Positions 336 to 51,200 of a stretch of 64,000 bases of DNA are shown here, piece by piece. Positions within the stretch are counted from its first letter, which is position 1; each line of letters begins with the position of its first letter. The position numbers and the translations under genes were made by a program. The DNA is from Ascidiella aspersa (lineage: Eukaryota): contig OZ004609.1 in assembly GCA_963924565.1 (NCBI GenBank), forward strand, positions 30,070,001 to 30,134,000. The letters run 5' to 3'. Under the pieces are notes generated by a model. It worked only from the letters and a program-made list of their open reading frames with translations, had not been told where the DNA came from and did no database searches.

Positions 336-5393
<5,058 letters not shown>

Positions 5394-8902: not shown

Positions 8903-9169
8903 ATGTCGAGCGAATCTGTACGAGGCACTCTGACGACACCCGGCGGCACAGTTGAGAATTTTGAAGCGCCGCTGTGTGGCGACACCGAAGATCTAAAGCA
9001 GGCAGTACTGACGATGCAAGGGCTGGTCGGTAAAAGTATTACCGAGAAAATCGAAGCGGCAAAAACAAACGAACCGGCGCGAAAAAAGAGCAAAAAGTCC
9101 GGAAAGATCGAAGAGGATGTTGCAGCGACCGAAGAAGAGACAGAGGCAGTGGAAGATCAGAGTTCATAA
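8903..9169 (+). CDS. Small protein, probable EKC/KEOPS complex subunit GON7 (C14orf142/LAGE3-partner-like)
   Basis: 88 aa, AAAATG start context, acceptor-like ttttacag ending 8862, AATAAA near 9652. Pattern: beta-hairpin (GTLTTPGGTVENF), amphipathic helix (LKQAVLTMQGLVGKSITEKIE), then basic/acidic tail, matching the fungal Gon7 pattern YxxPxG..F...LR..L..LQ..IN..LT..ME as recalled. Confidence 0.6.
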   Translation: MSSESVRGTLTTPGGTVENFEAPLCGDTEDLKQAVLTMQGLVGKSITEKIEAAKTNEPARKKSKKSGKIEEDVAATEEETEAVEDQSS

Positions 9170-12100
9170 TGCTGGTCGCGTTCCAAGTTGTAATCGTGGT
9201 TCTCGAAGTCAGCGTGTTCCTTCACGTTCATTTTTTCCGGGTCAGTTTCACTCCCGTCCTCGTGATGTTCGCCGGTGGGATGCTCTTCCTTGTACCTCGG
9301 ATCGTCGTGTGCTTGTTCGCCTGCACACAACAGTCCGGTTGTTAAGAATGTCCGATAAATGAAATACTTGTCCGATACTTTGGTGATTTCGGTGCCGATC
9401 CGCTAACGATTAATTTGCGCATTTCAGTCTTGTTTTGCGATCCAATGTAGAGTTTTACATCCTAAAAGTTTAAGTTTTTTCATAAAATTAAATTTAAGTT
9501 TGAAGGTTATAGACTTTGCCGCGCAAAGGAGTTTCAGCGTAATAATAACAACTATCCTTTTGGCCCAAATATTGGGATGAAACGCAAAGTATCGGACATA
9601 TGTAATACTATACCTTCGTGTGCTTTTTAAGCTTTTTTATATTTTGCGTAAAATAAAATAAACGCAATTTGCGTAGCTTGGTTTGTAATTTTTAGGATGT
9701 AGAAATACAAGTGCAGAAAAAGTGTTGTCAAAAACAGACACTTGTTACATATTTCGTCCCATGTTTAAGCGCTTTTTGCACCTTGCTTACACCTGATTAA
9801 AACCGGCATTTCAGCCCTATAAACATAACCTTTTTACCCTAAATTACGTGTTACCTGGAAAATAATTAACGAGTTTACAAAAAAGAAAGGCTTATTCTTG
9901 ATGCCGTAGCTGGTTTGCATTCAGGTATTAAAATATTTTTTGCTCTTTTCCAAAATATCGCGTATATGAATCCAAATATAATAGTCTACAAAGCGCAGAA
10001 CATTCCTTGTTTTGGAGCATGATGGTTGGAGGTTGTAGTAAGACGTAATAAGAAAATCAAAGCCCATACAGAAGTAGCCATCAATTTGAACGTTTCGAAT
10101 AACTCTTTATTCATTTGATGAATATTTCTTATTATTCCTTGTTTAGCTATGCAATTTCTTTAAGCAATGTTTGGAAATTAATCGGCTCACCCTCCTGGTG
10201 TAAAACGGCCTTGGCTAGGAACTCTTTCTCCTCCGCCTCCCACTTCGCTCTTCTCTCCTCCTCATCTTTGACGGTGTCGATGGGATGCATCTGATCGTGC
10301 CAGGAAGAGTCGTACTCGGCACCCCCTTCGTCCTCACTATGCTAAGGTACCATTTAAACATAAATTAGTATTAACATTGTTTTAAACCGGAATTTTATTT
10401 GGACAAACCCCGTCTTATTAAACTAAACGAAAGCCACTTGCAAACCGGGACATCAAATTAGATAGACCAACTTAAAATCCTCTTTGTCGCAAGATCTAGT
10501 GCCGACTTTTGTCCCTTTGTTGCAAAGTTGTCTATTTAGGAGCCATCCGGTTGGCTTTAAATTTAGAGATTTAGAATTGTTTCGAGATTCAGTAAAAAAA
10601 CTGAGGGAAGATCACTTAACAATAGCCTATACTTGTTTTTAGGTTAAGTCACTTCGATTTATTTGTTGTAGCGTGGCGCTAAAAGTATATGCTTTATTTC
10701 AAATCCTTTTTTGCCGAATTAAAAAAGTTAGTCCATTACAAGTAAGGCAACGTCTGCGCGTTTTGTGTTTTTGCCAAAAATAACTTAAATACTCACCGTT
10801 ATAACTTGATTGGCACCGTTTGTTTCAATAAATGCTTTTATGGACCCCACATCAACATTGCCGAGGTATTTCACACTCTAGAATGAAAAACAGTTTACGC
10901 ACATTATTTTGACGTGCAGTTAGTAAATCAGATGCAGCAAGTCAAGGCTCGAAAAATTAGTCGGCACAGGGACCGACGGTAGGCCTATGTCGGAGGTCGT
11001 GAGTTCAGAACTCACTGCGGGCAAGTTGTTCTAGCTTGGCCTTGCTTGCATCATTTTTCGACAGATTCGGTTAGTCTATTAAGGCTTCCGGAGTACTGTT
11101 TCAATGAAGTGTTTTAAATCGTTGATAAAAAACGACTTAAGAAAGACTTGGTTACAGTTGTTGTACACGTGTGTATTGTGTATCCTATGTATCTTTTATT
11201 TATTAAAATAGTTCAGATCAGAAGTTTTTAGTAGTTTAACAATAGGCCCACTGCGATTTTTGTAACAAAAAAGTGTAAAATTTTAGTTCCATAATTGCAC
11301 ACCGCATTTCGTTAGACAACAAAGACTTCTTAATAATAATTGAGTTATTGACGTCATAGCTGATTTATTTTTTATTTTTATACGCTTATTTAAAAATTTA
11401 GTAGGCCTAACACTAGCATATAGCCCCAGATCCATAAAAAACCTTAATCCGGCCCTGTAGGCCTATATACCTCTCCATTGGTTCGAAACATCTTGAAGCT
11501 TGGATACTTGATGTGAACGTCAATTTCTCCATCGTTTGTTGCCACGTTCATCTTGCCGAACGTGATGGTCTTGTTGCTTCTCATGTCTTTGGCCACCTGG
11601 TTGTAAACTCCCTGGGCCGAGTCCGAAGCGTCGTCGTTAGGTACGTCTGAATGAATGGTTAACATTTATTTTCTGGCCTAAATCGTCCGAATATTTTTGC
11701 TTCCTTAACTACTTAACCATCGGAAATGACTCCATTTTGGGTCAAGTTATTTGCGAAATACCAAGTCGCAGTCTAGCCTTTTTGCAAACAACCGTTCAAT
11801 TAAAGTTGTGCATTGGCTTCAAAACGAAAAGTCTATGCAAAAGTTGTTCGATTCAAAGTTTTGTTTAGACTTGTTTAAATAAAATTAACTTTTGCAATAC
11901 CAAACAATGTTTTAATGAAACCACTTCAAAAACAAACTGTGACTAAATTAGAAACAACCCTGGATGATAACGTAAACAAAACGACCTAATTTAGGTCATT
12001 CCACCTCACTAACTAAAGTCAAGTCAGTTAGAGTATAGTACAAAAACTTTGTTATCACACATTTGATAGCTTTACCTGAGAGTTTACAATATGATCTTCT

Positions 12101-15100
12101 ATCGAATTTAAACAAAAATCCCTAAGTGCTTGCATGATAGCCTACTCAACAGGGACAGTTTTCATAAGAAATTATGGCGCACCTAGAATCGGTTAACGTA
12201 TAGCGAGAAAAATGACATAAAACTTTACCAAATTTGTTTTGAAGCCGCACGCCATCTAACCGGATTTAATCAGCCATACTTACAATACATCATGAAGACC
12301 ACTCTCGTCTTGTCGTGGATGTAATTGTCATAAGTGGATCCCACTATGACCTTCACGTCATACATGTTCCAGTCTGTCGGCGGCTCATCGCTCCTAATGC
12401 TTCGCTGCGAAAGCATTAAAGTTAAGATTTTTGCTAACACACTTAAAAACATTGTTCAATGGAATATTAGTATTTATCACATGGCTTTTCATGTCATTAT
12501 TTTTAAGTTACCCATGTAAGTGCGCCAAAATTAGCAAGGATACATCTCTTTATTAACGCGTCAGTGCAATCTCATTCTGTGTTACTTCATTATATCGGTA
12601 AATCGCAATTTACTCAAAAAACATCATATTCTATATTCTTCAGTTGTGTATATGAAAATTAAACGGTATAGGCTACTTTGCCGTGATAGGCTTAAGGAAT
12701 ATATGCTACCATCGTACTCTAAACGAGGTGCTTAATTTTTGACGTTAGGCATATGTTTTATCGAATTTTCGCGACCTTCTAAATATATGTTAGCTTCAAA
12801 ACCTACAATAAAACGTCGGTAGCCTTTCAGCATAGGTAGGCTAAGGTTATAAAATTTTGCTCACGTAATGTCGTTTTCTGTTAGCGAAATCTCTTGAGCT
12901 TTTATTTTAAAAGAAAGTTGTTAGTCGTAATATTTTCTATTGTTTGCGAATCAATTAAATTCGTTTTTTTATTCAAAGGAACATCAAAGCTATATAGGAA
13001 CAATGATTGTTTATGAAAAATTGTTGATGATTAGGCCTATAGCATCTAGCCAAAGCGCGACCCCTAACCATCGCGGACCGCATTTCACAAGGTTCGAAAC
13101 TCACGTCGACTCTTCCCTCCATAACGTCGCTGGTGAACTTGGCAAAAGCGTCGGTCGAAAAGTCGCTCCTGGGCGGCTTGAAGCGGGAATGGTACTTGTC
13201 CACTTTGGTCATGCGATTGCAGGGCAACTCCTTGGTAGTGTCGATGTGGTAGAAGTTGAGGCTCTGACGAGAATCCTCGTGCGCAGTGTCAACGTGCACG
13301 AATACGACCTTCGAGTCCTGGCGAAAGGAGTCAGGTGAAACACTAGTTGTATAAAAGTATAACACAAAATATCAACTGTTGCTCGATTGAAAATACCTAT
13401 CCCTCGGCATTTTGAATTTTACCAACTACTTTGACAATATTCATCTTGCAGATAAGCTATGAGCATGATTTTATGACAAATTGACTAAAATCAAAAAAAA
13501 TTTTTTTCAAATAAAAATTGCAATCTTTTCAAAATATGGCTTTATGTTATTTTTTAAGGTAAAATAAACTCAATTTGGGTAATTGGTCGAACATTAGAGT
13601 TTTTGTTTTAACATATATGCAAAACCACCAAACATCATTCTAGTTAACAGCAATTCAAAAGAATTCTGCACTCGGCAGCCAATTGGGATAATTTTCGGAG
13701 TTACGTAACTGAACTGTGCTAATCAATTAAACAGCTCGGGTAAAATAATTAGAAGTTAAAGGCACATAGACAAAAAAACAGCAAAATATTTTCTGATTTT
13801 TCATTAGACTATGTCTTTTAAATCAGTTCATAGGAGACAGGGTAACAGGGTAACAGGATAACTTAATGTTGATCTTTTTGGTTAGAACTTACTTTGTCTT
13901 GGTGTCTTTAGGTATACAGCTACAATTGTGAAGTTTTTATTTACATATTTCAGTTTCACCTATACCTTATCTTACTCTAAATTTGTACCAAATTTAAGTC
14001 TATAATAGTACAATTGCTAGATCATACCTCCTAAAAAGTCTAATAGCGCCTTTTTACAACGTTACACCAGTGTAAATCGTTAGTCCTTTAATTTACTTAC
14101 ATTGGTTTGAAACTTTCTTGCCGCCTCCTTGAAATTACTGAAGGTTTCTTGATAGTTTCTATCTTTGCTAGACATGAACAGCAAGTGCTGGTAAATTTTG
14201 CCGGAATCGTAAATACGATGATTGTACTACAAAAAGAATAACAGAAAAATGATGAGTTTTATTAAAACAAACTGAATTTAAAGTGCTAAAAATATATTCG
14301 TATGCTGCCCAATTCAATCAGCAGTGGGAAGTGTGATAAAGAGATGCCTGAATGATATGGTTCAAAAGTTGTTACTTACACCGATTTGATTGTGTTTGTA
14401 GACGACGGGAACAGTTTCATAATCCACAAATTTCAGAAGCTCATTAAAGTTCGATGCGTCGCCTTTGAAAACCTCCTTGTTTCCGTCTTCAAACTAAAAC
14501 GAAAAGTTAGCACCAGATAAATTTAGTTCATTGGATAGTTCATTGGAAATCAGACAACAAAGCAATTTATCCTTGCGAACCAGCATTGTGGAAAACTACG
14601 ATTTTAAGTCTTTTTGTTTTTGTGTTTTTTTTTAATGTTTTTGAGTTTTGTATGGTCGCGAAAGATGTTGGATTGTTGGTGTTGCAAACAGACTTCTATA
14701 ATTTCCTTTCTTGTATTTATTTAGCCTACTTTATGGGTAACCTCCATTGTTTTAAAACCATAAAATGAACTTTAAATTCCCCCAAAAATCTTTTCGCTCC
14801 TTAATAACTTCTTACGTACATAAATCTACCTGTTATGTCACCAATCGCTACGTAAGTTGGTAAATCATGGAAACCTTGCATTTAATTTTTTTATGCTAGC
14901 AAATTGCTTCACTGCAATATTTCAAATGACATGGCTTGCTCAAAAGTATGCTCATTTAGAAAAAATGTACCAACTTCACCTTCTTGTAAACGGAAACTGA
15001 TCCACTGGTTAGCGAAAGCGTCCTCGCAATCTGTGCTGACGTCACAACCGCGAACCTGGGCAAGGTCATTTTGGGGTCGTAGACGAAATACTCGCTCACT

Positions 15101-17120
15101 TGGTAGAAGTTCTTGAAAGCGTCATCGGGCTTTTTCTGTGATGATCAAAATGTGAATTAAAACAGAATGACTGTACGATACACAGGTTGTATTTAACGTT
15201 TAGTATTTAGGTCGCCGCGAAAATAGGTTTAGAAGCACGGTATTGACTGGACAACGCCGTTTTGTTATAACGGAACTTCGGTATAGCGCTTACCCCAGGA
15301 AAGCACCCGACCACGACGCAGGTTTCCTCGCGAAGATCGTCCAGTTCCTTGGGGATGTTGATTATTAGGGGAACGTTCATAGCAAGTTTCACCCAAGCGT
15401 CGATGTGCTCGTTCGTTATCTTGCCTGAAACACAGTGTTACATTCCCACCGAATTGTCTTAATATGATATACCAAGATAAAAGAAAAAGAGCCAGTTAAG
15501 CTGTGGCGACAATTGAAAAGCGATTACACATTTATTTATTGTTATTAAGTCTGCGAAGACATAATTGCCTTTCCTTAATTTATAAATAACTAAATTTCAA
15601 GAACACACAGACACAGCATGGCAGTTTATGAATCTACCGGCTTTTGTAAATGTAGGCAATATATATTTAAAACACAAAACATAGTCTAACATAAAAAATG
15701 TTACCCACAAAACTGGATAACGCAACAAATACAACAAACACATACAGAATAGTCCGGGGTTTATAATGGTCCCCGTTCTCATGGGTTACAGAGCAGTCTT
15801 TGAGGGGCCACGCGAGTATAAAACTTTATTTTTGCTGCTAAAATTTGTCATTTTTTTATGACTTCGGACACCTCCCTTGTAACGTTCTGTAACGTTTTAA
15901 CGTGATCAGCGGGAACACAAGCAGTTAAAAGTACATAGAAGAAATGCAGGTTGAGAACCGCCGTAGTAGACAGTGACTATGTCGAATTTAAGAATACCCT
16001 ATCAAATCCCTCTTTACTGTAACGATGAACGCATTTGTCGCGACAAAAATGATTTGCTTAAATGTTTAAGTTCTTTACCGTGGTAGTCGAATCGACGCCC
16101 GTTCTTGAACAGCATGACCATGGGAAGTTGAAAAAGTGGGAATTTGCGCTGAATCTCTAGTTCCTTCTCAGTGTTGACTTTTGCAACGTGAACGTCCGGG
16201 TTCGACTTGTCCAGCGTTTCCTCCATGTACGTCATCACCTTTTCAGCGTCTTTGCTCTCCTTGTCCTTACCGACTGAAAACACAAAGATAACTTTCCATA
16301 TGAATATGCCGTTGCTGCCAGGCATTGTTTCAATTGTAGAATTGTTGTTCCGGCACCACATTCTAAACGACGAGGCGTCGGTACTTTAATAATATTTTGC
16401 CGGACAATTCTACAGTTATAACTTTCCTATTTTTTCATATAAAAACCAAAATTGTTGATCAGATTAAACAAATGCGTTAAAGTAACGAGTTAAAACGGTA
16501 GTAACTGGACTCAAATCTTAGACCGGAATGTTTTTGATTGAACATTATTCAAATGACCTGTATTCCATTTACGCATCAGGGTTTAAAGGTTTGCTATATT
16601 AACAGGTATTGTTTTGCTTTCCTCACTCTTTTTTGGTTCTGTTTTGCTTTCCTTTCCGTGTTTCCTTACCTTTTACAAGTTAAAAACGTGATATAAGTTT
16701 TTTTGTGACCTTAACTGCAAATTTGCACACCGATTAGTTTTAATAACATAATTAAATGTTCTGCTGGAATTTGATTTCATGACAGTCCCATTAACTATTG
16801 TCTAAAATACTGTGCAGTTTAGATATGGCCCAACACTCCTCCTCAGTTTGTAATGATTAGAAATAGTTTACTAGTTAAAATTCCGATAAAATAATGTTTT
16901 AAGATTATTTAGCGGTCTTTCTACCATGTTTAGGTGTTTAAGCATACTCACAGAAAAACACGAGAACGAACTTATACTTCATCAGTGCGGCGAAGAAAGA
17001 GTGATCGTCAAGGACAAGGACACCATTCTCCCTTGGATAAAACTCATTCTCCGTCCTTTTGCAATCAGCATTTCCCGCTAGCGCGACAATTAAAACGGCC
17101 AGTAACGCCACCGTCTTCAT
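9157..17120 (-). CDS. Non-catalytic protein disulfide isomerase family member (signal peptide, a-b-b'-x-a'-c), 598 aa
   Basis: 12 GT-AG exons: 17120-16952, 16273-16079, 15424-15294, 15135-14980, 14493-14380, 14226-14101, 13317-13105, 12404-12284, 11646-11471, 10877-10797, 10341-10191, 9320-9157 (1797 nt, phases consistent). PDI hallmarks: ENGVLVL, VAKVN, KFEDG, VVFVHVD, x-linker RSDEPPTDWN..VKVIVG, KMNVATND, cis-Pro loops LP/YP, C-terminal HYEL. Minus-strand AATAAA at 8839-8844. Confidence 0.9.
10011..10108. repeat. About 100-bp interspersed repeat, copy 1 (copy 2 at 26140-26237)
   Basis: tttggagcat(g/a)atggttggaggttgta...tcaaagcccatacagaagta...tttgaacgtttc.aataactcttt occurs in both introns with scattered substitutions. 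Confidence 0.85.
10960..11190 (+). mobile_element. 5'-degraded tRNA-derived SINE-like copy related to the 27-kb array
   Basis: ggaggtcgtgagttcagaactcactgcgggcaagttgttctag...tgcttgcatcat...acagattcggttagtct aligns with the units at 27.1-27.9 kb. Confidence 0.75.
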
Positions 17121-17215
17121 AACTTTATCTTTCTTAACAAATCAACGTTCTATCAACTCTCTTTGCATTAAATGTAGCTGCCTACTGCTGATCTGTAATA
17201 TATGCAGCTGCATAC

Positions 17216-17260
17216 ACGTGTAACGATTGGCTTACGGCACCCGTGTACATTTACGATTGG
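17216..17260 (-). promoter_or_regulatory. Two CCAAT boxes, one in an ERSE-like CCAAT-N9-ACACG arrangement, upstream of the PDI-like gene
   Basis: Minus strand 17260-17242 reads CCAAT cgtaaatgt ACACG (ERSE consensus CCAAT-N9-CCACG); a second CCAAT-cgtt-ACACG lies at 17230-17217. Confidence 0.5.
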
Positions 17261-18121: not shown

Positions 18122-19283
18122 CTAATTCTGAAAGTCTGCGAAATCGAGCATCAACATGTAGATCTCGACCATAAGGTCGCACGCATCCTTGAGGGAGGCG
18201 TCCTTTGCATCCACAACCAACCTCCCGTCGGCATGGACGACCGCCAACATCCTCTTTCGACCGAGGAAGATCAGTTGGCCTCGCATTTCCTCAATGTCCG
18301 GCTCGTAGATCATTTGAGCCGCGTCTGTGAGTGCAAGGCTTTGCAAACACACCGGAAAGCAAGCGTTGAAAAGCACGCGCCGTTTTTTGATTGTGAAGTC
18401 GCCAGGTTTGATGCTGCAGCCGTCAATTCCATTCTTCTTCAGCTGTTTTATGACGTAGGCGACGACTCTGGACTTTCTTCGAGCTGTTCCTGAGCGTGTT
18501 TTGGTCTTGACCCTCATTGCATTGTCGTTATACGTATCTATCCACAGCGATTGCGGACTTTGTCCTAAAATGCTCCAAGGAGAGGCATCGGAACTGGAAT
18601 CGCCACTCGACTGCGTGCTCGATTCCGATGACGAGGTTGTGACGTCATCGTCTGCGTAGTATCCGAGCTCGGGACTCCACCTCCCCTCCGAGCTGACGTC
18701 ACCGTGGAGGTCCGGCCATTCCTCGTGTTCCAGATCGGGCAAGATTCCCTCGTCTTCTTCTTCGTCCTCCGAAGAATGGCGCTCGGGACTTTCGGTTTTC
18801 GACAGCCTGAGTAAAAATTGCGCAATTTGAAAATGACGCGCATTGCGCCATGTATGAAATAAACAATGCAATTTGTAAAACATGAAGAGTGTTTCAAAAC
18901 GCGCTTATGTTAGACTTTGACAGAATTGCACCTCAGTTAGCTACACTGCACAAGTCTAATTCGGCCACTTTGTGCAATGACATGTACCTAATTATGTCAC
19001 TATATAAAACAAACAGACATGAAAGTTTTCGTATTGCACATTTAACTAAGGAGCAGTTTATGGATTTTGAAACCAAAAATAAACCTAATATTTGAAGTCT
19101 AATTATTTGTATCTAATATATGGTCACAAACAACCAATCTTAAAAACAAAACAAAAATAAGTATAAGGCTTTGCCTACAAATGTACTTTTAAAAAACATT
19201 TTGTATACAGACCTTTCCCAGTCTTTGTACAACGATTCTTGCGAATAAATGTGGAAAAAATCATCCTCATGCAATTCCGCCAT
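18122..19283 (-). CDS. Highly divergent TATA-binding-protein (TBP/TRF)-fold protein with acidic N-terminus, about 251 aa
   Basis: Exons 19283-19213 (MAELHEDDFFHIYSQESLYKDWER) and 18806-18122, phase-2 join. C-terminal half aligns to TBP repeat 2: DFTI~DFKI, FPVCLQSLALT~FPIRLEGLVLT, YEPD~YEPE, LIF~LIY, VHADGRLVV~IFVSGKVVL, EIYMLMLDF~NIYPILKGF. GILPDLEH resembles the core start GIVPQLQN. Exon 1 is less certain (donor gtctgt). Confidence 0.75.
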
Positions 19284-23340: not shown

Positions 23341-23941
23341 TTAACCTACGCCAATAAAATATATATATATAATATATATTGAATTTTTTTGCTCTATCTT
23401 TTACTTTGGAACTGTTCATAGACAAATCATCCTTTTATGTGTGTGTGTTTTTAATATCGTTTTGCTGGCTCTATTTTAGAAGCATTTATCACCCCATTTG
23501 GCCAACATAAACTATTAACTTGTTTCCTAACTTATTACCTGATTTTAATCTTACTAATTTAAACCTCGGCAAACTTGGTACGCTGGAATGTTTAAAGTGC
23601 ACTATCTCAATATACTCCGAAATCTCAGCATGCCAAGTTTACAGGGGTATTATTACCCTGGGTGCCAGTCTACATTTCATTGCAATTCAGGATAAGATTT
23701 AGGGTGTGCAGTGCTACATTTTTGGGTGTGCAATAATTGACTAATCCAGGTGCGCACTCAAATTTCTTCAAAAAATATTAGGTGTGCACCTGCAACGGAA
23801 TGCAGACGGACCAGGATGGCAACTTTGTTATATCCTGATTTTTGGTCTGTATTCTACTGTAGATATCCTGATAATAAATAGATAACTACTTAATTACCCA
23901 TTTGATTTGATTTTCTTCAGGTCAAATTAATTGTTGCCGAT

Positions 23942-25591
23942 ATGGACATCAATTTAAAACTGCATTGTTGTATGCTGCTAATGGCAGTTGTAAGTCCATT
24001 GCATATTGTTGCAATCGAAACATTCCACGAATCCTCAACAATGTCGGTGATAAACAACAACCAGCTTTATTCCTACTTTAACTTCACCACAACCTTGGAA
24101 TTCCAGGAAAAATTTGTCGCAAACCACTACCAGCTCTTTCCTCGGTCCTTTGGAGAGCTGATGCAAAAATATCAAGTCGCTGAGTTGCACTTTACAATGA
24201 CCCAAGGGTTGTGGAGATACAATCAATGGGGCTATCCCCATTCACCCTCACCCACCGGGGCCCAACTGTGGGTCTGGTTCCAAAAGGACATCAAGGATGT
24301 TGACAAAAACTGGGTTGGTTTTACCAATGCACTGTCCGGTTTGTTTTGTGCCTCGTTAAACTTTATTAACAAAGCAGTTACCGTGTCACCAACTTTGTCG
24401 TTTCGTCCGTCTGGAGCTCTAAAGGGTGACGTTGATAATAAATTCCTGAGGTATGGTACTTTGTCTCGTGAAAACTTATGCACAGAGAACCTCACACCTT
24501 GGATGAAGCTGCTGCCTTGTGGGGCGAATGCCGGTCCTGCTTCCCTTCTAAACCCTAGTCAGTTGCATCACAGCCAGTATTTGGCGGTAGGCATTCATTT
24601 TAAAACTGTTTGTTTTGATGAGAAATGTGCCAGGACCTTTGTCCAACTGCAGCAAGACGTGTCTGCCGTCTTTGACCTTCGCACATCACTAGATAGCAAA
24701 CCAAATTTTAATTTCATGTCGGTGTTCTTGGTTAAAATCAAGCCGGCCTGTCCTCTGGCTAGTTCGAGCACTTTAAATATGAATATACCCAAAGAGGCAT
24801 CTGTGACACCAAAAATTAATGAACAGAAGTCCGGCTACATGACGTTGGACTTATTTGAATTACACAGCAGTGCAGACTTCAGTGTAAAGTGGAAGAAAAG
24901 GCCAATGCTTGCCATCCAAACTCCACCTGGAATTACCAGCCATTGTTATTTGACTGGCCTAGGTCTCAACGGTGGCTTAACTTGCTCATTGACAAACAAC
25001 ATGGACCACAATTTGACTGTTGTGTTCTTCCAGGTCTTTCCTTGGTTTCTATATACTAAGTTACACACACTGAAGATAGAAACCGCGACCGGGGCCAGGG
25101 TCCTACCGCATCGCACCCTCTTCACACCTGCTCGAATCCGAGAGTCACCCCACATATTGGAGGTGGTATTCCCGCTAGCGGCGAATTCTGTAACTGACCT
25201 TCAAATCCAGTTCACCAGGGGTTTTCTCAGATGGACAGAGCACCCTCCAGATGCAAATCACGGTTTCTACATAAGCCCTGCCACTGTTACGTTAAAGTCA
25301 GATGATTTAGATGTGCATGTACCCAATGGTAACAAGGTACAGCGCATTTACAGTGAGGCTCTGCTGATCAACATACCAGTTCCAGACTTTTCAATGCCCT
25401 ACAATGTTATTTGCCTGGTGTGCACTGTCATTGCAGTTGCATTTGGGTCTCTGCATAACTTTACCACCAGAAGGCTTCAAATGGTTTCTCCCAACAAGCC
25501 CAGTGCCTTGAAAGAAATGTTAAATAAACTGCTTGGTTTCTTTAAAAAGACAAAACCGTCAAAACCTGTTGATGAAAAGAAGACCGATTGA
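23942..25591 (+). CDS. PIGT: GPI transamidase component PIG-T (GPI16), single coding exon
   Basis: 549-aa ORF with signal peptide, HYQLFPRSFGE, NALSGLFCASLNFI, RENLCTENLTPWMKLLPC, EHPPDANHGF, PDFSMPYNVICL followed by a TM segment, and C-terminal KKTD (KKxx ER retrieval). Confidence 0.97.
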   Translation: MDINLKLHCCMLLMAVVSPLHIVAIETFHESSTMSVINNNQLYSYFNFTTTLEFQEKFVANHYQLFPRSFGELMQKYQVAELHFTMTQGLWRYNQWGYPHSPSPTGAQLWVWFQKDIKDVDKNWVGFTNALSGLFCASLNFINKAVTVSPTLSFRPSGALKGDVDNKFLRYGTLSRENLCTENLTPWMKLLPCGANAGPASLLNPSQLHHSQYLAVGIHFKTVCFDEKCARTFVQLQQDVSAVFDLRTSLDSKPNFNFMSVFLVKIKPACPLASSSTLNMNIPKEASVTPKINEQKSGYMTLDLFELHSSADFSVKWKKRPMLAIQTPPGITSHCYLTGLGLNGGLTCSLTNNMDHNLTVVFFQVFPWFLYTKLHTLKIETATGARVLPHRTLFTPARIRESPHILEVVFPLAANSVTDLQIQFTRGFLRWTEHPPDANHGFYISPATVTLKSDDLDVHVPNGNKVQRIYSEALLINIPVPDFSMPYNVICLVCTVIAVAFGSLHNFTTRRLQMVSPNKPSALKEMLNKLLGFFKKTKPSKPVDEKKTD

Positions 25592-40590: not shown

Positions 40591-42200
40591 TGTTAGACAC
40601 TTAGCTTAGCTTATAGTCGATTCAAGCCAAACAAGCGTAATCGTAAATTGTCAATGAATAAATAACAAGAAACACCACAAGGGAAAATAAGTAACAATAT
40701 TACGTCAAGGATTTTTTTAGTTTAACAATAACTTGGCATCAACCAAACCTAAAGATAAACACTCTCCTCGCTTCACGAAGAACTTATTTGCCTCCTCTAA
40801 ATGCAACCGTCGCGATAACAATGGCCCCATCGCAAATTAAATGTTTGTCTTTCTTTCTAAACTTCGCCAAATCATTTTTATCGCGACTAAACTATTGTTG
40901 TGCTATCTCAAGTACGTATCTCTCTATTCAAAACTAAATCAATGCAATATAGTCAGGAAATTCCTAAAATGAGTCCTGAAAATATCTGACGAAACATTCA
41001 TTTAAACATAAAACAAGATTGCTTAAAAATATATACAAAAATAAAATTAACAATTAAAAAAAAATAAAAAAAAAATAAAATAACGTAGCCTAAGAAAAAC
41101 GAGAAAACATTTTACGCTTATTGCATCTCCAAATTTTTATGTATTTTGAACGTTTTGAAAATAAAACTGCAAACAGCACACACACATTCCCCTTTTCAGT
41201 TCCGACTCTCGTTGTGATACCAACTTAATTTTGCGATCTCATGTCTGAAAACGACATACCCAAATATACAACGTCGATCTGCATTTAGTTGGAATTTTTT
41301 AATCAGGGTTGAATGTACTTATGACGAATTGACAGTCGGTTGTCAACTCTACAAGCAACTGTAACCATAGCACCACTTGGCCACGGAAAAAGTTCCCCAA
41401 CCCTGTACTGAAACAACAAATTCACGGATTCTTGTAATTGTGACGTCGCGATATATTAAGCGTTTAATATTGCGCCGCGAAGGCTCCAGGGCTTAAAAAG
41501 GGTGAAACACCCCATTTACCTTGCGATCACTGCAACATTACACCACATTGATAAGAACTTCAACATGTGGAAAACATGCAATCAGTAGTGAGAAAATGCT
41601 ACGAACACTGTCAATAAAAAAATTAAGCGCTCAATATCGCGCCGCAAAGGCCAAGAAAGGGAAACTCCTTTTTCACCTTGTAATCTCTTTAATTTTTCAC
41701 GACAGTGAACTATGTTAAAAACGAGCAATCGGCCGTAGTAAGAAAAAACTTAACGATCAAGGTAAATGGAATAGTTTTAGGCTCATCTGTCACGGTCGGG
41801 TGCCATCTAGTCACGTGACAAATCCAAGCGTTCTCCCACGCGAATTTTCGCTTTGGCCTGATCGCTTTCTGTGCGTTTTATGGTCGGCCACTCGGCCAGA
41901 CACGGGCCTCCTAATCCCGATCGCTTTTCAAAACTGCTTTGTCGCAATTCGGGCTGCCGCGAACAAAGGGCGAAAAAGGAAGGAAAAGGCCAGCAGGGCT
42001 GCGTATATAGACTGGAAATCGTAGACGGCGGATATTGACGTATAAGTAGGCAGCGGATTTAGATTTAAGGTGACAATTTAATTTGATGCTAAGTAAGGCG
42101 AAATCTTAATGCAAAGTGTATTTCTTTTAATATCCTATTAATATAATGAAGCTTTACAGATTTCTATCGGAGTTAGTGTGTATACAACTATTTAAAAGAT

Positions 42201-45200
42201 ATGGACGCTGCAATAGCGGCCAGCCGAAACGCCTCATTCCTTTCGCCGCATCTGCAACGAACGGCGGGCCGGCAAGTTGAAAAGTCCGGCGGGATACCGG
42301 CGCCGGAACCCGAGGTCGCCCACCCCACGTGGAATCGGTCATGTTGGCCAGAATGGGCGTTCGCATTTCCCGCTTGGGGAGCGGCCGCCTACCCGATGTC
42401 CAGCGGCAACCAGCAACAGCAACAGCAGCAGCAACATGCAGAGTTGTATTCGCGCATTCTGGAGCTGCATCGCATTGCTGCTCTGCGGCAACGAATGAAC
42501 AATTTGACGGCAGGCGGCCTTGACCTTACACAGGGAAATTTTATAAGAAGCTTGGAAGAGCAAAATGCGGCAACAGTTGGCGAAACGCAAGCCTCTTCTG
42601 TCGGAAGCAGCCAACGATGCCAGGCGCACTGCTCAGCTGGCCTCAAGTCGCCCTATTCGCCCCATTCGAGTTCCGATTCGACTGCTAATAACGCCCCCGC
42701 TGCCCCTGACTCCCGCTCTTGCGACTCTGGAAGTAAAGAGGCCCCCGATGAGGTCCCTTTCCTCAAGTTTGGGGTGAGGGCGATCCTGGCCAAACGCCCC
42801 TCGTCCAGCGCTTGCTCACCCCCAAGCAAAGGTAGGCGACTTGCTCACCCTTTCAACGTGAATAGTTTTGTCTTTTGGTGGCAAATTTCGCAACGAAACA
42901 AATAAACCAGAGGTTTTTAAACTTTTTTACCACCGTAGGCAAAAACAACGTTTCTTCAAAAAATAGACTTCTTAGATATATACTAAAATTTCAATTAGGC
43001 CTACATGGACCCCCTAACACTATTTCACGGGCTTCCAACGGGTCGATGGGCCCCTGGTTAACAACCAATAAAATAAACGAAACCTGCGTTTCCTTTGTTC
43101 CGGATTATTTGTCCCATCTGTGTCATTATCTGTGAGGTTGGATTTCATTTTGGTCGAAAGCTTTTTAATTAACAGGAGTCTGGATTTGCTTGCAAGCACC
43201 GGGATTTGGTTTAAAATCATAGATATGAATTCGTTTTAATAAACTATTATAACTTGCCATCTACCACTTTGCGGACGTGAATCTTATACACATTGTAGCA
43301 GTGTATTTTTTAAGAAGATTTTAGGGACCGAAACGGCCTCCTAAATTTATTAACGTTTTCCTTCTTTTGTAACTAACTCAGGCAGTTGATAATAGTGATA
43401 AATAGTCGTTGTTAAGCGGGTCGTTGTGGTCTTTATTTTTCGGTAAAGTTTTCAAACGTCGCTACTAAAATTGAATAAACTTTACTGATACAGGAAATGT
43501 TATTTTTTGCAATCTATCTGATGTTTAAGGGCTGCTTTTTTCGTGACCCTGTTTATCCTTAGTTTCAATCAAACGTTAGTTATGTAAATAGCAATGCATG
43601 TTCGATAGGCATTTCCAAAATTCGCATTGTACTGTTGTTCGTGGTTTGTCATTCACGCACAAAATACAGCAATTTTATTTGGTATTGAGTTTACGTGCCT
43701 GTCAATATTTATTTGCAAAAAGGGCAAACATGCGTCTTCACCACATCTCAATTTGTCGGCCATTTTTATTTTCCCGACGCCGTGGTATAGCCTTGCTGTC
43801 TCCTGAGAAACAATTTTACAATTTTTTTGTTTAAACACAAGTTTAACTGTGGTAAATCGGTAAATATTAAGCCATAACACTGCTCTCTAATAGTCTTTCA
43901 TGGAGGGAAATCTCATTTTCAACAAGGCAAACATCCATATTTGCTCAAATAGCTCTTGTGTGCGCTCGAAATGGATTGCTCACTTGAGCTTCGTTCTTGT
44001 TTCGGAAACTTGCCTTTTGCGCTCGCGTTTATAAGTCCTTTTAAATAACCCAGATTAACGACTGCGAAATAATTATTATCTGTGATTTTTGACTTGTAGT
44101 GGAGATAGAATAAATTTTCCAATTATACGAATGTTTGTTAATAGGAAAAATTAACGAGCATTATTAAACCATCTTAGTTTCTGTTAGTTTATTTTGTGCC
44201 ACTGTCTTTTTTATACAAAAACGCAATCGGTATTCTAATTAATGAATAAATAAATAGTTTCGAATTCGCTTTATTTAACACATATGCTGAAATTGGGCTG
44301 TGTCAAGTAAAAACCTATATTTCCATCAAGCAAAAATTTTTTTTTTTCGCCCATATAATACCATTGAAATACAAACATCATCTTGCAAAAAAATGCACAG
44401 CTCTTTTTCAAAAGTGCACCCCTCTTCAATGCCCTGTTTTCGACTCGTCTCTCACCATTCGGCCTTATAGCAAGTCTGAAATGTCGCCACTTATTAAACC
44501 TTGCTTATGTCGCTCCCCGCAAAAACCTTTACGCCTTGACTCGAAAGCGTTGTAAGGTTTTTCATCCTCCGCTAATTTGGTTCCATGTCAGGCGCTGCTT
44601 TTGAATGTTTCTGCGGCTTTTTACACTTATCGAGTGGAGTGCTACCAGTTGGATTAAACAGTGTTTTCTCAACCCTTTGAACACATTGCCAAGGATACTT
44701 TGATTTGATGGTAATTCAGTTTAAAAGTTTTTCTGTTTTTTTTTAATCTGAACACGGTGTACTAGGTAACAAGTTCAAAAGGACATTGATCTTTTTAATA
44801 TATGGTCATGAGAAAAACACTATTCGGTTACTGCAACGCTGGGCACTTATTTTTTATACGGGCACCATAAGAAACACAAATTGTCTTTTAAAGGCCGGGT
44901 AAAAATGAAATTTGAAATGCAAATAATATAAAGCTTTATTCGTTTTAAACGAAAACTGTAAATACCTTGTTTTGACAAGCTGGCAAGAGTCAGAGTACAC
45001 GACGATGCCCTACAAGCGTAATTTGTATTATAAAATATTCTCAAAAAGTAAAGGCTTTATTTTGTTTGAAAATGCTTTTTGAAAAATACCGCGGGTTGTA
45101 GTTTGCCCAGGCCTGGGTTGGTGACAAGTGATAGCAAGTATATTACTTCTTCATTAGGTGTAAGCTTACTAGTGTTTGAGTGCATGTTTTATTACTCCGA

Positions 45201-48200
45201 GGTTCCTTAATGGAAATAGCGTTACGAACCCCGTGTGTTACACGATAAAAAGTGCAACCACGAGACAACTATCTTGTTTGCGTTACTCCCTCTTCTCATT
45301 ATAACAGTTACGTAATAACTTTGCTCATAAACCGATCGAATAACCATCTCGTCATCGCATTTGCGTGGTTCGCCCTCGTCACTTTTCCGAGGCGTTGTTT
45401 TACATTGCTCGAACGCCGTCGAGAAAAACTCCCGGTTTTCGATAAAGCTTTTGATTCGGACGGATGAATCAGCGCCATGTGCGCGGATCCCATGAGGGCG
45501 GCGTCCGCGTCGAGCAAACAGCGAAATCTCGTAAACGGAAACGCGATGTTTGCTCGCCAAACGATAAACGTCGCCGGGCGATTGGCCTCTTTGATTCGCG
45601 TCGCTTTCTTGGCGGGTGAATACGCGAAATAACACACACCTGGCGGTTTGGAGATTGCAGCAGCTCTTGCCACAACAAACGGCGTTTTACGGCGTGATTA
45701 AAAACAAATCATACGCCGCTGTCATGTGGTTTAAGGTAATTAGGCAACCATAACTCGCGGCGGTATATTAGTGTTTGAAACGGATAGCTATAACAGTTTT
45801 CGTTTGATGACAGTTTCATGATACCTTATAAGCACAAAATTACTACACAAAATTAACAAAAAAAGGTTTACTTCTTCGCTATAATTCAAACCAGTTATAA
45901 ATCTGTATGCTAAGGCGATTGCGCATTCTGTTACATATAGTTAAAAATGCTCAAACTTAAAAAAAAGGAAAGGCATTTCGTTCGTACCCCCAAAACTGGT
46001 TTGGCTTACGGCCTTATTGGCCCTTATACCTTTTATTTCATTGATCTTTTATCTAAAAACGTCACACTGAAAATTTATAAGCTGTTAATAGTAATTAATT
46101 TTTTAATGGAAAACTTCCTTGTGAACGTTATTTAGTATTTGGTAGCGTTTATGGTGCCACGGCAAAATGTATTCTTCAGTCGTAAGACTGTCCCTGATTG
46201 CTGTTAAATCAATAAAACAAAATACTGATTAAAAAGTATATTGTAGTGCTCTCTCAAATTTACTTTTAAGGTAATAAAAAAAAAAAAAAAACGCTGGACG
46301 TTGGCTTTAACTTTACGTAAGCGCGCTAAAACAAGAAGCAGCAATTTCCGTTGCCAGAATAAACAACCAGCTGGAATACAGAGTGTACTTTGCTAAATTT
46401 AGAATTTATAAATCTGGCGGCGGCGCGCACGCATAGTATTCAGGACGCCAATACGTTTCGCCGCTGTGTGTAAATGTCAACACTCTTATTATACTCTCCC
46501 AATACGAGGCGCAATACGCTGTAAGGCCTGGCGAAACATGGCGAATGCGTCGATCGGGAGTTTCTGTCGCCTTACGACCGGCCTTATCCAGCTGTTTACA
46601 TATTTGCAGCTCATTGTGACCTGCACAACGACATGCCCGGCGCAATTCCACTCCTATATACCCGCCCCGCCACTGGCTTTATCATCTGTTTTATGCCAAA
46701 CGATGTCCTGTCCGCGTATTGACACACGTGTAAGGATATTTGAGGTTTGCTTTACTTGGCGCGGAACATTATAGGCCTGTGCAACGTTTCTGTTTATAAT
46801 GCAATAATACTTCCTTGAGAAAAGGCTAACTACCCAACCCCTTTCCATGTCTGAAACATCACTAAAAACATATACATTTAATACCATTAAATAAAGACAA
46901 GAATGTTGACTTATAATATCAAGCATTCTGCGCCCACACTATCCATCTTGTCTAATAAAAATTGCTTGTGTTTTTACTTAAAAGTTGAATCAAAGCTACA
47001 CCTTTTCTTGAAACAAATACTTTCATTTTTATTGTTTTCAATAAGGTGTTTAACATACAAGAAAACTTGTTTACTTTAAAATATATCAAGCTCTATTTCT
47101 CAAACCAAACTGCCACATGTCCCGATTAGCATTTCGATATTATTAAAATTAACGACTGTTTTTGCTATATATGAGCATATATCAAGTTCGCTTCGCTCAA
47201 ATCAGCGTGTCAGCAATTCAGTCTCACGAAAATCGATTGTTTCTTCTGCCTAACCTCTGAATGTTCCCGGATAATTCAGTCATGTTAAGTCTGTTTAAAC
47301 CTTTCTTAACCGATATCCCTAGTAGCCAAGATAGCGATCTAGCGCGTAACCCAAGCGCAAACCCCAAACGGCCAGTCGCCAGAGTGACCTGAGAGCGCGA
47401 AAAACACCAGTTTCCTGTCCGCCATCCAACCTGGTCAGTCACGTGGCCGACCTTGATTTTATCAGCTGACCTTGGCCATTCATCGGCGGTCATTTGTCCA
47501 CATGGATCAGAAATCCGATAGCCTAAGCGCGTAGCTATGCTGGTCATACGACGCCACGCGATTGCGACCCTTATTAACCCCGCGACCCCGAGTCACCCCG
47601 CGCCCAGTTAAGCATCGCTAAAATGTTTAGGGTTACAGGGAATTAATTGGCCATCACCGGCCAAAAACCTGAACAGTCGTTTGTCCAGCGGCCGACCGCA
47701 TTTAACATCAGGTCCACGTGAACTGTATGACCTTCAACCTCTTCTCGCTAAGCCTGATTGGCTGCACGTGTTGCCTTTTCCGATGAGCACCTATCTCATA
47801 TCGCTTTTGCCAATCTTTGCTGCCCGCTTGGATTCAATGTAACGCAAGACCAGTTGGGAGCTGCCATTTTGTTTCGTTGATTTTTTCGGTTTTTTGTCCG
47901 ATTTCTCTGCGCGTCAAATTGTTAAGTAACAAGCGTTTTGGGGAGCAGTTAATTTGCTTCTTAATTTATTCCGCTTTGTTTATACAAATTGATATTGCAG
48001 TGATAAAAGTATCACCTTGGAGTTTACCGTAAAAAATATTAAACTCAATTTTTTTATTTGAATCTTGGATATACATTTGCGAAATACAAATTACGGAATT
48101 TCTTAAGTGCGCTGTTGTGGTTGAAAAGTATACGAACTTCGAGGTTCTAAAATATAATCTAATTTTTGAATGCGGATAGATCAATTTAGAATTACAGTGT

Positions 48201-51200
48201 TATTATTTACGTTTTTCAGTTCAACACTCTATTACGTCACGGTTTCCCGATCACGTGACAGTCTCCCCGACCAATGAGACTCCCTCACCGATGCATATCG
48301 CGCAGCCCTGTCACTACCTGCCCTCACCTACGTTTTTAGGTAAGACGCTATATTAGAAATAATTATATTATATATCATTCATGTCACTCCAAACGTTTAC
48401 TTTATTTTCGGGGATCACGCAACAAACGTTTTACACTGCTTTCCGTAAACAGTCTTTAAAAAGTATTGGAGTGCAATACAAACAAAAATTGCTAAAAACT
48501 CGTCCGTGAGCATAAAGGAAGGTTTTAGCTTTATTAAACTTTAATCGCAAACAACCGATACAATTACAATTTTAATGCACTAACCTCAAGCTGGTTTAGA
48601 CTTAATATTTCGACGCAAATGGCGCTAGTTTACACTTGAATTGACTTAAGTCATCCGGGCAAAATAACTTTACTTATATTACATGACTTGATTTAATTTC
48701 ATTTTATTTGGTGTTTTCTTTCTAAATATAAAATTCGACCCGATAAAGGTTTAGATAAAGTATAAAAAAATAATAGTATGACAAAAAAATGATAAAAAAG
48801 CAACATATTTCTGACATTTTCGCCTAATAAAAAGTCGTGTCGCGTCTAATCTCCAAGTCGAATCACTAATGAAAAAGTAAAACGATAAACCAATAAAATA
48901 GGTAAACTTCGATTATAAGCAATAATTCAACTAAGAAATAACCATAAAGTGGCAATCAGAAAAAAATCGAAGTTTTAATTTGAAAGGTGTCGCGTCTGAT
49001 TCAAGCGATCCAACAGGTATCTAAAGCCGGATAAACACCTTTGCAGGACACCGGTACGTTCCGCACCCGAACCTCAACCCACACAACCAGCAGCACCCTC
49101 ATCACCACCAGCATCATCATCCAGCCGTCCTCCCTTGGCTTCCCGCCGCCATCCGTGGCAAGAATCGTCGCGGGATGTTGCGACGAGCCGTGTTCTCGGA
49201 CGCTCAGCGCAAATCGCTGGAGCGCAAGTTCCAGCAGCAGAAGTACATCGGCAAGCCCGAGCGCAAGAAGCTGGCCGCCAAACTCGGCCTCAAGGACTCG
49301 CAGGTGAATTGGCACAATCAGCTAAGATATCAAGGCGTGTCAAATTATTTTTGATAGATTTTCTTAAGCCAGGGGTTCTCATACTTTTATTAACCCTGAC
49401 CCACTAAAATAATTTGTCAAGGACTCACAGGTGAATTGGACAAACAAGTGAAGAAATCAGTTCCATTTTTGACAGATATCCTAAGACATGGGCTTGAACA
49501 AAACACGGAGCATGGTAAATTCCATTCCTAAGGTTGTCCGTTCTTTTTAACATCAGTTAAAAGGTGGAAATAACCACGCTTTTACAGTTAAAAGGTGGAA
49601 ATAACTACGCTTTTACAAATTTCCACCCTCGGAGTTTGTAATTTCCACCCCAAAATCGTACCCCGATTTACAGTGCGGATACCCTTTTTGACAGAGACCC
49701 TTAAATAGGAGTGACTCTCAAACTAATTTTTAACGCTGACCCATTAATATGATTTGTCAAGGATTAATGGGATTTTCAGAAATTGCGTTAATGGGATTTT
49801 CAGAAACAGTCATTAGGAAACAAGTATAGAGTTAAGAAACCTGCTGTTTTTGTTTGACATGAAGTCTAAATACATTTGAGAAGAAAGCACGACTTTTTTT
49901 CAATTTAAACTATTTTCTTTTCTACACCAAGATTTACACACCAATTATACACCAAGATTTTAATTGGGCCTTCATGGATCCCTAAATCTAATCATCGAAC
50001 CTACAAAGTGGTCCCAGTTTAAAAACTCCTGTAAAGCAAGCCTGTGTTTTGTGACGCCCTCCTATGTGGCATATATCCTTGTTCGCAGGATATTTGGCAC
50101 ACTGAGTAATGGTTGTTCCTTTTTAGCTTTATATAATTGTGTTAGGGTGTTCGCATGACTTCCACCTATATGTGGCTTATTCTTGAGCTAAAATATAGTC
50201 GGAGTATATGACGGTCTGGATAAGAATATTAAGAACGAGGGGATTTCAACAGGGGTCCTCGAAAGTCATTTTGAAATTAAGTCCAAGTTACGTCTTCCAA
50301 ATTTAATGAGTCAAGTCTCAGTCAAAGTCTTCAGTTGCCCACGCCCACTCCCAATATCAAGTCATCTACAAGTCAAATTACAAAAGTAAAACGACAAACC
50401 ATTAAAATTGGTAAACTATTATCGATTATAAGCAATAATTCAATTTAACAAAAAAGAAGCACTATCGTTTTACGCGCAAAACTTGAGAGTAAAACTCAAT
50501 TTTATAACCAATGATCAATGAAAATTTCAACCCAAGTCAATGACTAAGGTCTAAGTCGAGTGAATTGAAAACATTGACTTGAGTACACTTAGTCAAGTCA
50601 TTACAACTGTTGACTAGATTATATCATTCATTTGTTTTGCTGTCAGTAAACGTTTTTTTGGTGGTTTATCTGCGTGTTTTGTTCAAAATTAGTCATGTTT
50701 TTTTTTAACTCTGTAGTGTCATCATACCGGACACATTGTGAAAGTCGATTTAATTCAAGGTAGCGTTTTTCCAAGGACTAAACCTTGGTGTAGCATCTGC
50801 AGGGACCGTTTGACTCCCAATTTACCTTTTTTATAGTTGTATGTTTCTTTTAATCATCCGTGATTTCGGAACGCTTTTTGATGCGTTATTCCCATTTTGT
50901 TTCGCGTTGCTGTCAATCTGCATAAACTATTAGCATACAGTGAGTTGATCACAAAATATATACATTGACATTTTCTATCAAAACCGGTGCATTTTGTGAT
51001 GTAGGCCTATATAGGTCACCGTTAAATCAAACACATACTTGCGTGTTAATTGTATTTTTTCCTATCATCCCCATATAAATTAACCATTTTGTTTAGTAAT
51101 GTTTTTGTGTTATGCTTTTTGAGTTGTTTTAGGGACCGAAAATCTTCCAACGGTATTTTTAAATACAACCTACAATTCGCTTTTTAGCAACATTGGTTAT

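Follow-up and report, generated by a model that had tools for sequence, protein, structure and literature searches.

A gene for a PDI-like protein that lacks both CGHC active sites was analysed in a 64,000-nucleotide stretch of the Ascidiella aspersa genome (GCA_963924565.1, contig OZ004609.1, positions 30,070,001 to 30,134,000; below, the window). Our data place this gene in a conserved ascidian family of pseudo-PDIs that is apparently undescribed, as is its unmatched C-terminal tail. We think it rather likely that the protein acts as a redox-independent chaperone or structural subunit of the endoplasmic reticulum (ER) with a dedicated putative partner. Redox-dead PDIs are already known, and the loss of cysteines itself is unsurprising; the interest of the family lies in its tail, the surface of its b domain and its probable independent origin, not in the DxxS words that replace CGHC. 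The gene occupies 17120-9157 of the minus strand and has 12 exons, whose 11 introns are all GT-AG and whose spliced frame encodes 598 aa (∼69 kDa) with no internal stops. The original prediction gave the exact coordinates of both replaced motifs (DKES at 16265-16254, residues 60-63; DDAS at 11635-11624, residues 413-416); the extent it proposed, 11624..16265, lies inside the gene but falls short of its ends.

DKES and DDAS fall in the CGHC columns when the protein is aligned with 21 PDIs from databases and with P4HB from the same genome. The one-residue gap that had been anticipated in the a domain is found there too, at the Trp column, and the a' alignment is gap-free. HMMER run on the orthologue from Clavelina lepadiformis places the a-site gap after the motif, an alternative register that is also Cys-free. 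Across five family members cysteine occurs at 0 of 9 former sites, which read DKES, NQES, NKES and DHNG in the a domain and DDAS, DKKS, DQGS, EKKS and HDES in a'. Serine is kept at 8 of 9 sites and the first residue is always polar (D at five, N at two, E and H at one each). Conservation of DxxS itself in orthologues, which had been suggested as a check, was not observed: the word is present at one of the four a sites and three of the five a' sites, and at both sites only in A. aspersa (one of four readable members), others carrying, for example, NQES, EKKS and HDES. These positions thus vary in part, as the first residue changes between D, N, E and H, yet not freely, given the kept serine and the constant polarity. 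A DxxS-like word in PDI b domains stands in another register and was not used.

Structures were predicted with AlphaFold for the Clavelina protein, once from 34 mostly ordinary PDI rows (mean predicted local distance difference test score, pLDDT, 74.5) and once from family rows only (61.2). In both models helices start at residues 61 and 417 with the first motif residue at the N-cap and the serine at N3, so the former active-site positions lie at the helix N-terminus, the placement that was to be checked; seen in both domains, it supports the a-domain register of the original prediction. N-cap and N3 are the positions of both CGHC cysteines. N-caps are often Asp or Asn, and a buried Cys is most closely matched by Ser; no new chemistry is therefore required to explain the same swap at both sites. 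The modelled geometry suggests that D and S are likely helix-capping and steric stand-ins for cysteine, not metal ligands. The family also shows that a thioredoxin active-site loop freed of catalysis settles on a polar cap and a serine.

The same double swap had earlier been taken as the mark of a new function, such as coordination of a cation by the DxxS sites themselves. Cation coordination would agree with DxxS at both sites in A. aspersa, with serine at 8 of 9 sites and with an acidic first residue at 4 of 5 a' sites. However, the motifs of orthologues differ: Asn comes first at two a sites and His at one a' site, orthologue P0010 has Gly for Ser, and Lys is frequent at the middle positions. 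A single Asp with a single Ser makes for a poor site, which here lies at a helix N-terminus, where the dipole favours anions. We consider cation binding there very improbable; if the protein binds metal at all, the tail is the likelier place.

The residues around the former sites point the same way in every member. The Trp before the motif is replaced or deleted, and the buried Glu, whose column is hydrophobic in all members, and both Arg columns are replaced as well; Trp, buried Glu and Arg are accessory catalytic residues of PDI. With no CxxC at a or a' and these residues gone, the protein does not qualify as a catalytic PDI (EC 5.3.4.1), and the pattern indicates that catalysis in the family is dismantled rather than retooled. 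The cis-Pro loops, as first noted, are kept (P107 and P457 in A. aspersa). Only four cysteines are present in the whole protein (residues 20, 157, 162 and 330).

A decaying copy, or splicing that restores CxxC, is by now largely refuted and hardly credible. One haplotype does alter an invariant Pro, and the genome's own P4HB has spare active-site exons; since that gene seems to carry duplicates of them, a spare exon was also sought here, and neither a PDI-like CxxC word nor a second copy of any exon, active-site exons included, was found within 9100-17200. The frame is open with canonical splice sites, database proteins have the same joined sequence without a site cysteine, and orthologues are 39–62% identical per domain. 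Polymorphism was read from two DNA runs, X1 and X2, across 14370-16290; both behave as DNA, with no splice joints. Of the 39 substitutions listed, 32 fall in introns (1325 bases) and 7 in exons (596 bases), and all 4 indels listed are intronic. The exonic differences are synonymous in 6 of 7 cases (P 5e–4 versus neutrality, with 125 synonymous and 469 other sites), which indicates that the gene is under purifying selection. Together with the orthologues and a long stem followed by shorter tips in the trees, this bears out the earlier view of selected retention, and on sequence grounds a chaperone or structural role, also proposed then, gains support.

Exon 7 was compared with 1.84 billion representatives and gave 14 matches, 10 of them clearly of this family. 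Named relatives are all ascidians: Ciona intestinalis, with split models called PDILT-like and PDI-2-like, and Clavelina (601 aa). P0010 is a protein of 588 aa on 2.1-kb Logan contigs, thus likely from a spliced transcript, and a metagenome contig (L022) holds exons 7–11 of one further species. This range is a lower bound, as two word-based searches, which returned only ordinary PDIs and no added orthologue, missed known members; exon 2 against a 90% protein collection gave six candidates and no family match. No second copy of the gene turned up in the genome when it was searched with exons 7 and 9. Automatic database labels are PDIA2-like or PDILT-like. We found no paper on the family within a coverage that excluded subscription journals and preprint supplements, and Ciona expression data may exist in print. 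A Ciona gill-cilia spot described as similar to PDI (KH.C4.577, PMC4427456) was rejected, being 95 kDa versus 69 kDa here.

The four-domain layout of PDI is kept, as originally proposed. Human PDI is the best fold match of the Clavelina model (Z 27.5, root mean square deviation 5.4, 443 aligned, residues 26-494) and P4HB (PDIA1) the best sequence match (E 9e–44). PF13848 and PF00085 score above the Pfam cut-off in the Clavelina orthologue, and the A. aspersa domains were assigned by alignment. An ESM Atlas query with one protein (P0016) matched thioredoxin clusters. These matches indicate that the gene belongs by descent to the P4HB/PDIA2/PDILT subgroup of the PDI family (for the family table see PMC12781119).

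Trees were built from 30 aligned rows, including 21 of 28 non-family matches, with near-copies, partial and fast rows dropped (25 rows under LG+C20, 18 under LG+G4). The phylogeny suggested in the original prediction resolves the family as one clade (100/100; stem 1.82, tips 0.34–0.42, P0010 1.08) whose nearest neighbour is the genome's own P4HB (86/81). PDILT and PDIA2 group together (100/99) inside vertebrate PDIs (96/95). Forcing the family with PDILT gave approximately unbiased (AU) test P-values of 0.042 (LG+C20) and 0.078 (LG+G4), and forcing it with PDILT and PDIA2 0.012 (LG+C20) and 0.020; these values are to be read with a long stem, two PDILT rows and one tunicate P4HB gene. The own P4HB gene lies on the same contig, 12 Mb away, and intron phase is equal in 9 of 9 introns compared (7 in the same alignment column, 2 within three columns). 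The family probably arose when P4HB was duplicated independently in the tunicate line, an origin favoured over PDILT orthology by these trees, not proven. A thioredoxin match 47 kb beyond the window (L002) was rejected as a tandem parent.

That the gene is instead a true orthologue of vertebrate PDILT, serving the folding of sperm proteins, appears improbable. Domain order, the missing first Cys and the long tail are shared, NCBI names one Ciona model PDILT-like, and the LG+G4 test (0.078) gives no rejection. However, PDILT groups with PDIA2, both LG+C20 tests (0.042 and 0.012) go against this placement, and PDILT keeps SxxC at a', both Arg columns and a basic tail stretch (PMC4894388). If the tree holds, P4HB has given rise to a PDILT-like pseudoenzyme a second time, independently, in the vertebrates' sister group.

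Family-specific conservation is concentrated elsewhere than at the former active sites. An alignment of four full-length members has 14 invariant columns among the 108 of the a domain, against 32 of 108 for b, 27 of 121 for b' and 23 of 103 for a'. The b domain, with the most invariant columns of the four large domains, is only 18–25% identical to P4HB and PDILT (19–25% to P4HB alone) and has a six-residue insertion and many family-specific invariants, a pattern that would resemble a partner-binding surface. In b', several of the columns which we take to line the hydrophobic pocket of human PDI have become polar: His stands for Phe in 4 of 4 members, Thr for Ile and His for Met in 4 of 5 each, and Gln for the pocket His in 3 of 4; other pocket columns and the x-linker Trp are retained. 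A family-invariant His lies one column beyond that of the pocket His, and all 11 exon-7 rows, some of them near-copies, keep Cys330 and His321.

Tail residues 504-544 share 59–61% identity with three orthologues, a level equal to that of the core, and 32% with P0010. Here WHDxxHP is found in 4 of 5 members, followed by a predicted helix (520-540 in Clavelina, pLDDT 66–75) that has W, a hydrophobic residue, L, A and V/I on one face in 5 of 5 members. The last 105 residues contain 32–34 D+E and 11–13 His in three species (29 and 7 in P0010). The core has 12–14% D+E (13.5–15% K+R) versus 17–19% D+E in P4HB. The tail gave no convincing match among Pfam and PDB sequences, and its ESM Atlas scores of only 0.80–0.82 are at chance level. 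The hydrophobic N-terminus was judged by eye to be a likely signal peptide and the protein ends in HYEL (FDEL, HHEL and HSGL in orthologues).

These features are what leads us to a chaperone or subunit with a dedicated partner. P4HB itself also serves as the non-catalytic beta subunit of prolyl 4-hydroxylase and of MTP (database entries), so its duplicate could keep a subunit-type role while dropping catalysis. The protein would reside in the ER and hold its putative partner by the remodelled b and b' surfaces and the predicted tail helix, and the His-rich acidic tail might tune binding by pH or Zn2+. A precedent is PDILT, described in PMC4894388 as a folding assistant with no oxidoreductase activity.

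It is possible, but we consider it unlikely, that the protein chiefly senses metal or pH through its acidic His-rich tail and the b' histidines, acting either as an ERp44-like Zn2+/pH-gated retrieval factor or as a buffer of metal in the lumen; the PDI core would then be a scaffold, and Cys330 might serve as a ligand or in a mixed disulfide. The tail composition in three species, WHDxxHP in 4 of 5 members and the invariance of Cys330 and His321 would all fit, and ERp44 binds Zn2+ by b' and tail histidines (PMC6363758). However, most of the tail has pLDDT under 50, too low for any three-dimensional His cluster to be read from the models, the core is less acidic than that of P4HB, unlike a calsequestrin-type store, P0010 has no WHDxxHP, and the genome has separate calsequestrin and ERp44-like genes. 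In a combined version the protein would be an ascidian-specific, dedicated chaperone gated by metal or pH, whose tail covers the His-lined b' pocket until Zn2+ or another metal opens it; the ERp44 switch would then have evolved a second time, independently, on a P4HB scaffold, for a tunicate-specific secreted product or metal handling. We hold this version to be quite unlikely.

The chaperone or subunit reading also draws on the promoter. The mammalian ER stress response element (ERSE) is CCAAT-N9-CCACG; a CCAAT-N9-ACACG variant precedes the PDI-like gene, and the same variant stands 193 bases before the ATG of the own P4HB (L018 2138). At 14 further loci matches were seen at 3, read as BiP (two), GRP94 and calreticulin, and at 0 of 11 others, some with unconfirmed starts. 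Over 414 kb a spacer of 9 is matched 10 times: 7 of these sites precede ER folding genes, 2 lie in their introns and 1 is elsewhere. Other spacers (5–8, 10–13) give 1–6 each. This excess and the ER-gene context would support ER-stress control of the gene. ERSE-like elements lie upstream of P4HB, BiP, GRP94, calreticulin and PDIA6 (L018 2138, L033, L031, L029, L006), and some of those in A. aspersa have A instead of the first C in the second half-site.

Several points weigh against our preferred interpretation. The promoter element is one base off the consensus and was noticed post hoc, and none was found upstream of ERp57, TXNDC5 and ERp44 in the stretches read. The b' pocket, needed for general chaperone activity, is partly polar, so the protein may bind clients in general only weakly. 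The C-terminus of P0010, HSGL, is a doubtful retrieval signal, and this orthologue has neither the a cis-Pro nor WHDxxHP. The sister position to the own P4HB is unstarred (86/81 and 67/82), the AlphaFold models are of the Clavelina orthologue and not of the A. aspersa protein, and the sole non-synonymous difference (X1, one contig) alters family-invariant Pro164.

Among known systems PDILT (PDIA7, vertebrate testis) is similar in the a-b-b'-a' order, the lack of a complete CxxC, the long C-terminal extension and the x-linker Trp (Z 19.2 between the Clavelina model and 5xf7). However, PDILT keeps SKKC at a', and SXXC is called highly conserved in it (PMC4894388), while the pseudo-PDI a' site ends in Ser in 5 of 5 members; with no cysteine left at either site, the ascidian family went further. 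A frog PDILT row also keeps both Arg columns that the family lost. The PDILT pocket has His at its base, a column that is Gln in 3 of 4 pseudo-PDI members, several others being polar; the partly His-lined pocket and the acidic His-rich tail with its conserved helix are also differences. P4HB shares the best sequence and fold match, intron phases and the ERSE-like variant, but identity is 19–29% per domain, and the pseudo-PDI has a less acidic core and about two tail exons of new sequence. ERp44 (PDIA10) has the PDI fold and a His-rich tail before an ER retrieval signal (PMC6363758); it is an a-b-b' protein with a CRFS cysteine, in contrast to four domains with no site Cys, no tail similarity was found, and a separate ERp44-like gene with CRFS is present in the genome (L017). 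Calsequestrin (PDIB1/2) shares CxxC-free thioredoxin folds and an acidic tail, with a weak Pfam match in two orthologues, but has three domains, a very acidic surface and no retrieval signal, whereas the pseudo-PDI has four, a near-neutral core and a putative retrieval signal; it, too, has a separate locus.

Table. Features of the pseudo-PDI gene (window positions)
Feature	Position	Strand	Basis or remark
ERSE-like element CCAAT-N9-ACACG	17242..17260	-	Starts 140 bases upstream of ATG
Exon 1: start codon, likely signal peptide (by eye), a domain start	16952..17120	-	Splicing, orthologue alignment
Exon 2: a domain with former active site	16079..16273	-	Thioredoxin E 0.0021, under Pfam cut-off
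DKES in place of CGHC, a domain	16254..16265	-	No difference listed in X1, X2
Pro107, cis-Pro position of a domain	16122..16124	-	Kept in 3/4 family members
Exon 3: a/b junction, b start, family-specific FPG loop	15294..15424	-	Orthologue alignment
Exon 4: b domain, six-residue family-specific insertion	14980..15135	-	Orthologue alignment
Exon 5: b end, b' start	14380..14493	-	His251 at PDI pocket Phe column (4/4)
Exon 6: b' domain	14101..14226	-	Splicing
Exon 7: b' domain	13105..13317	-	Invariant Cys330 (13221-13219) and His321; His340 at PDI pocket Met column (4/5 members)
Exon 8: x-linker with Trp, a' start	12284..12404	-	
Exon 9: a' domain with former active site	11471..11646	-	cis-Pro457 kept 5/5
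DDAS in place of CGHC, a' domain	11624..11635	-	
Exon 10: a' end	10797..10877	-	Splicing
Exon 11: conserved tail block	10191..10341	-	WHDxxHP, then predicted amphipathic helix W..EEKE.L..AV.H
Exon 12: acidic His-rich tail	9157..9320	-	Ends HYEL and stop, likely ER retrieval signal

Introns 11 and 1 of the gene carry very high-copy short interspersed elements (window 10010-10120 and 16310-16390), the former with many opposite-strand joints, like a miniature inverted-repeat transposable element. On the plus strand an 88-codon frame (8903-9169), presumably akin to GON7/C14orf142, overlaps tail-to-tail with the last 13 coding bases of the pseudo-PDI; it has no Pfam match and 2 of its 5 differences are non-synonymous. 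About 1 kb upstream on the same strand as the gene, an acidic, Ser-rich 260-codon stop-free frame (18122-18904, -), also with no Pfam match, is possibly transposon-derived. Further neighbours, all on the plus strand, are a HECT ligase exon (4143-4556), an intronless PIG-T (Gpi16) gene (23906-25591) and a homeobox gene (42177-49354) which we take to be Hlx-like; they give no functional lead for the PDI-like gene.

Outside the window, the own P4HB gene (L018, G000:C3:18112331-18121800, +) has tandem duplicates of exons 2, 5 and 9 (2932-3123/3167-3370, 6310-6420/6551-6658 and 7806-7987/8290-8468) that are likely mutually exclusive. With the spare exons the a motif is CVHC (with a GC donor) and the a' motif CKHS; neither chain contains a stop, and spare exons 2 and 9 match Thioredoxin (E 1e–11). 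A single P4HB gene could therefore yield PDIs that differ in their active sites; a literature search gave nothing on this. An ERp57-like gene (L009, G000:C6 about 901800-903340, -) seemingly has three tandem versions of the exon for the a-domain cis-Pro loop, an arrangement that suggests mutually exclusive use.

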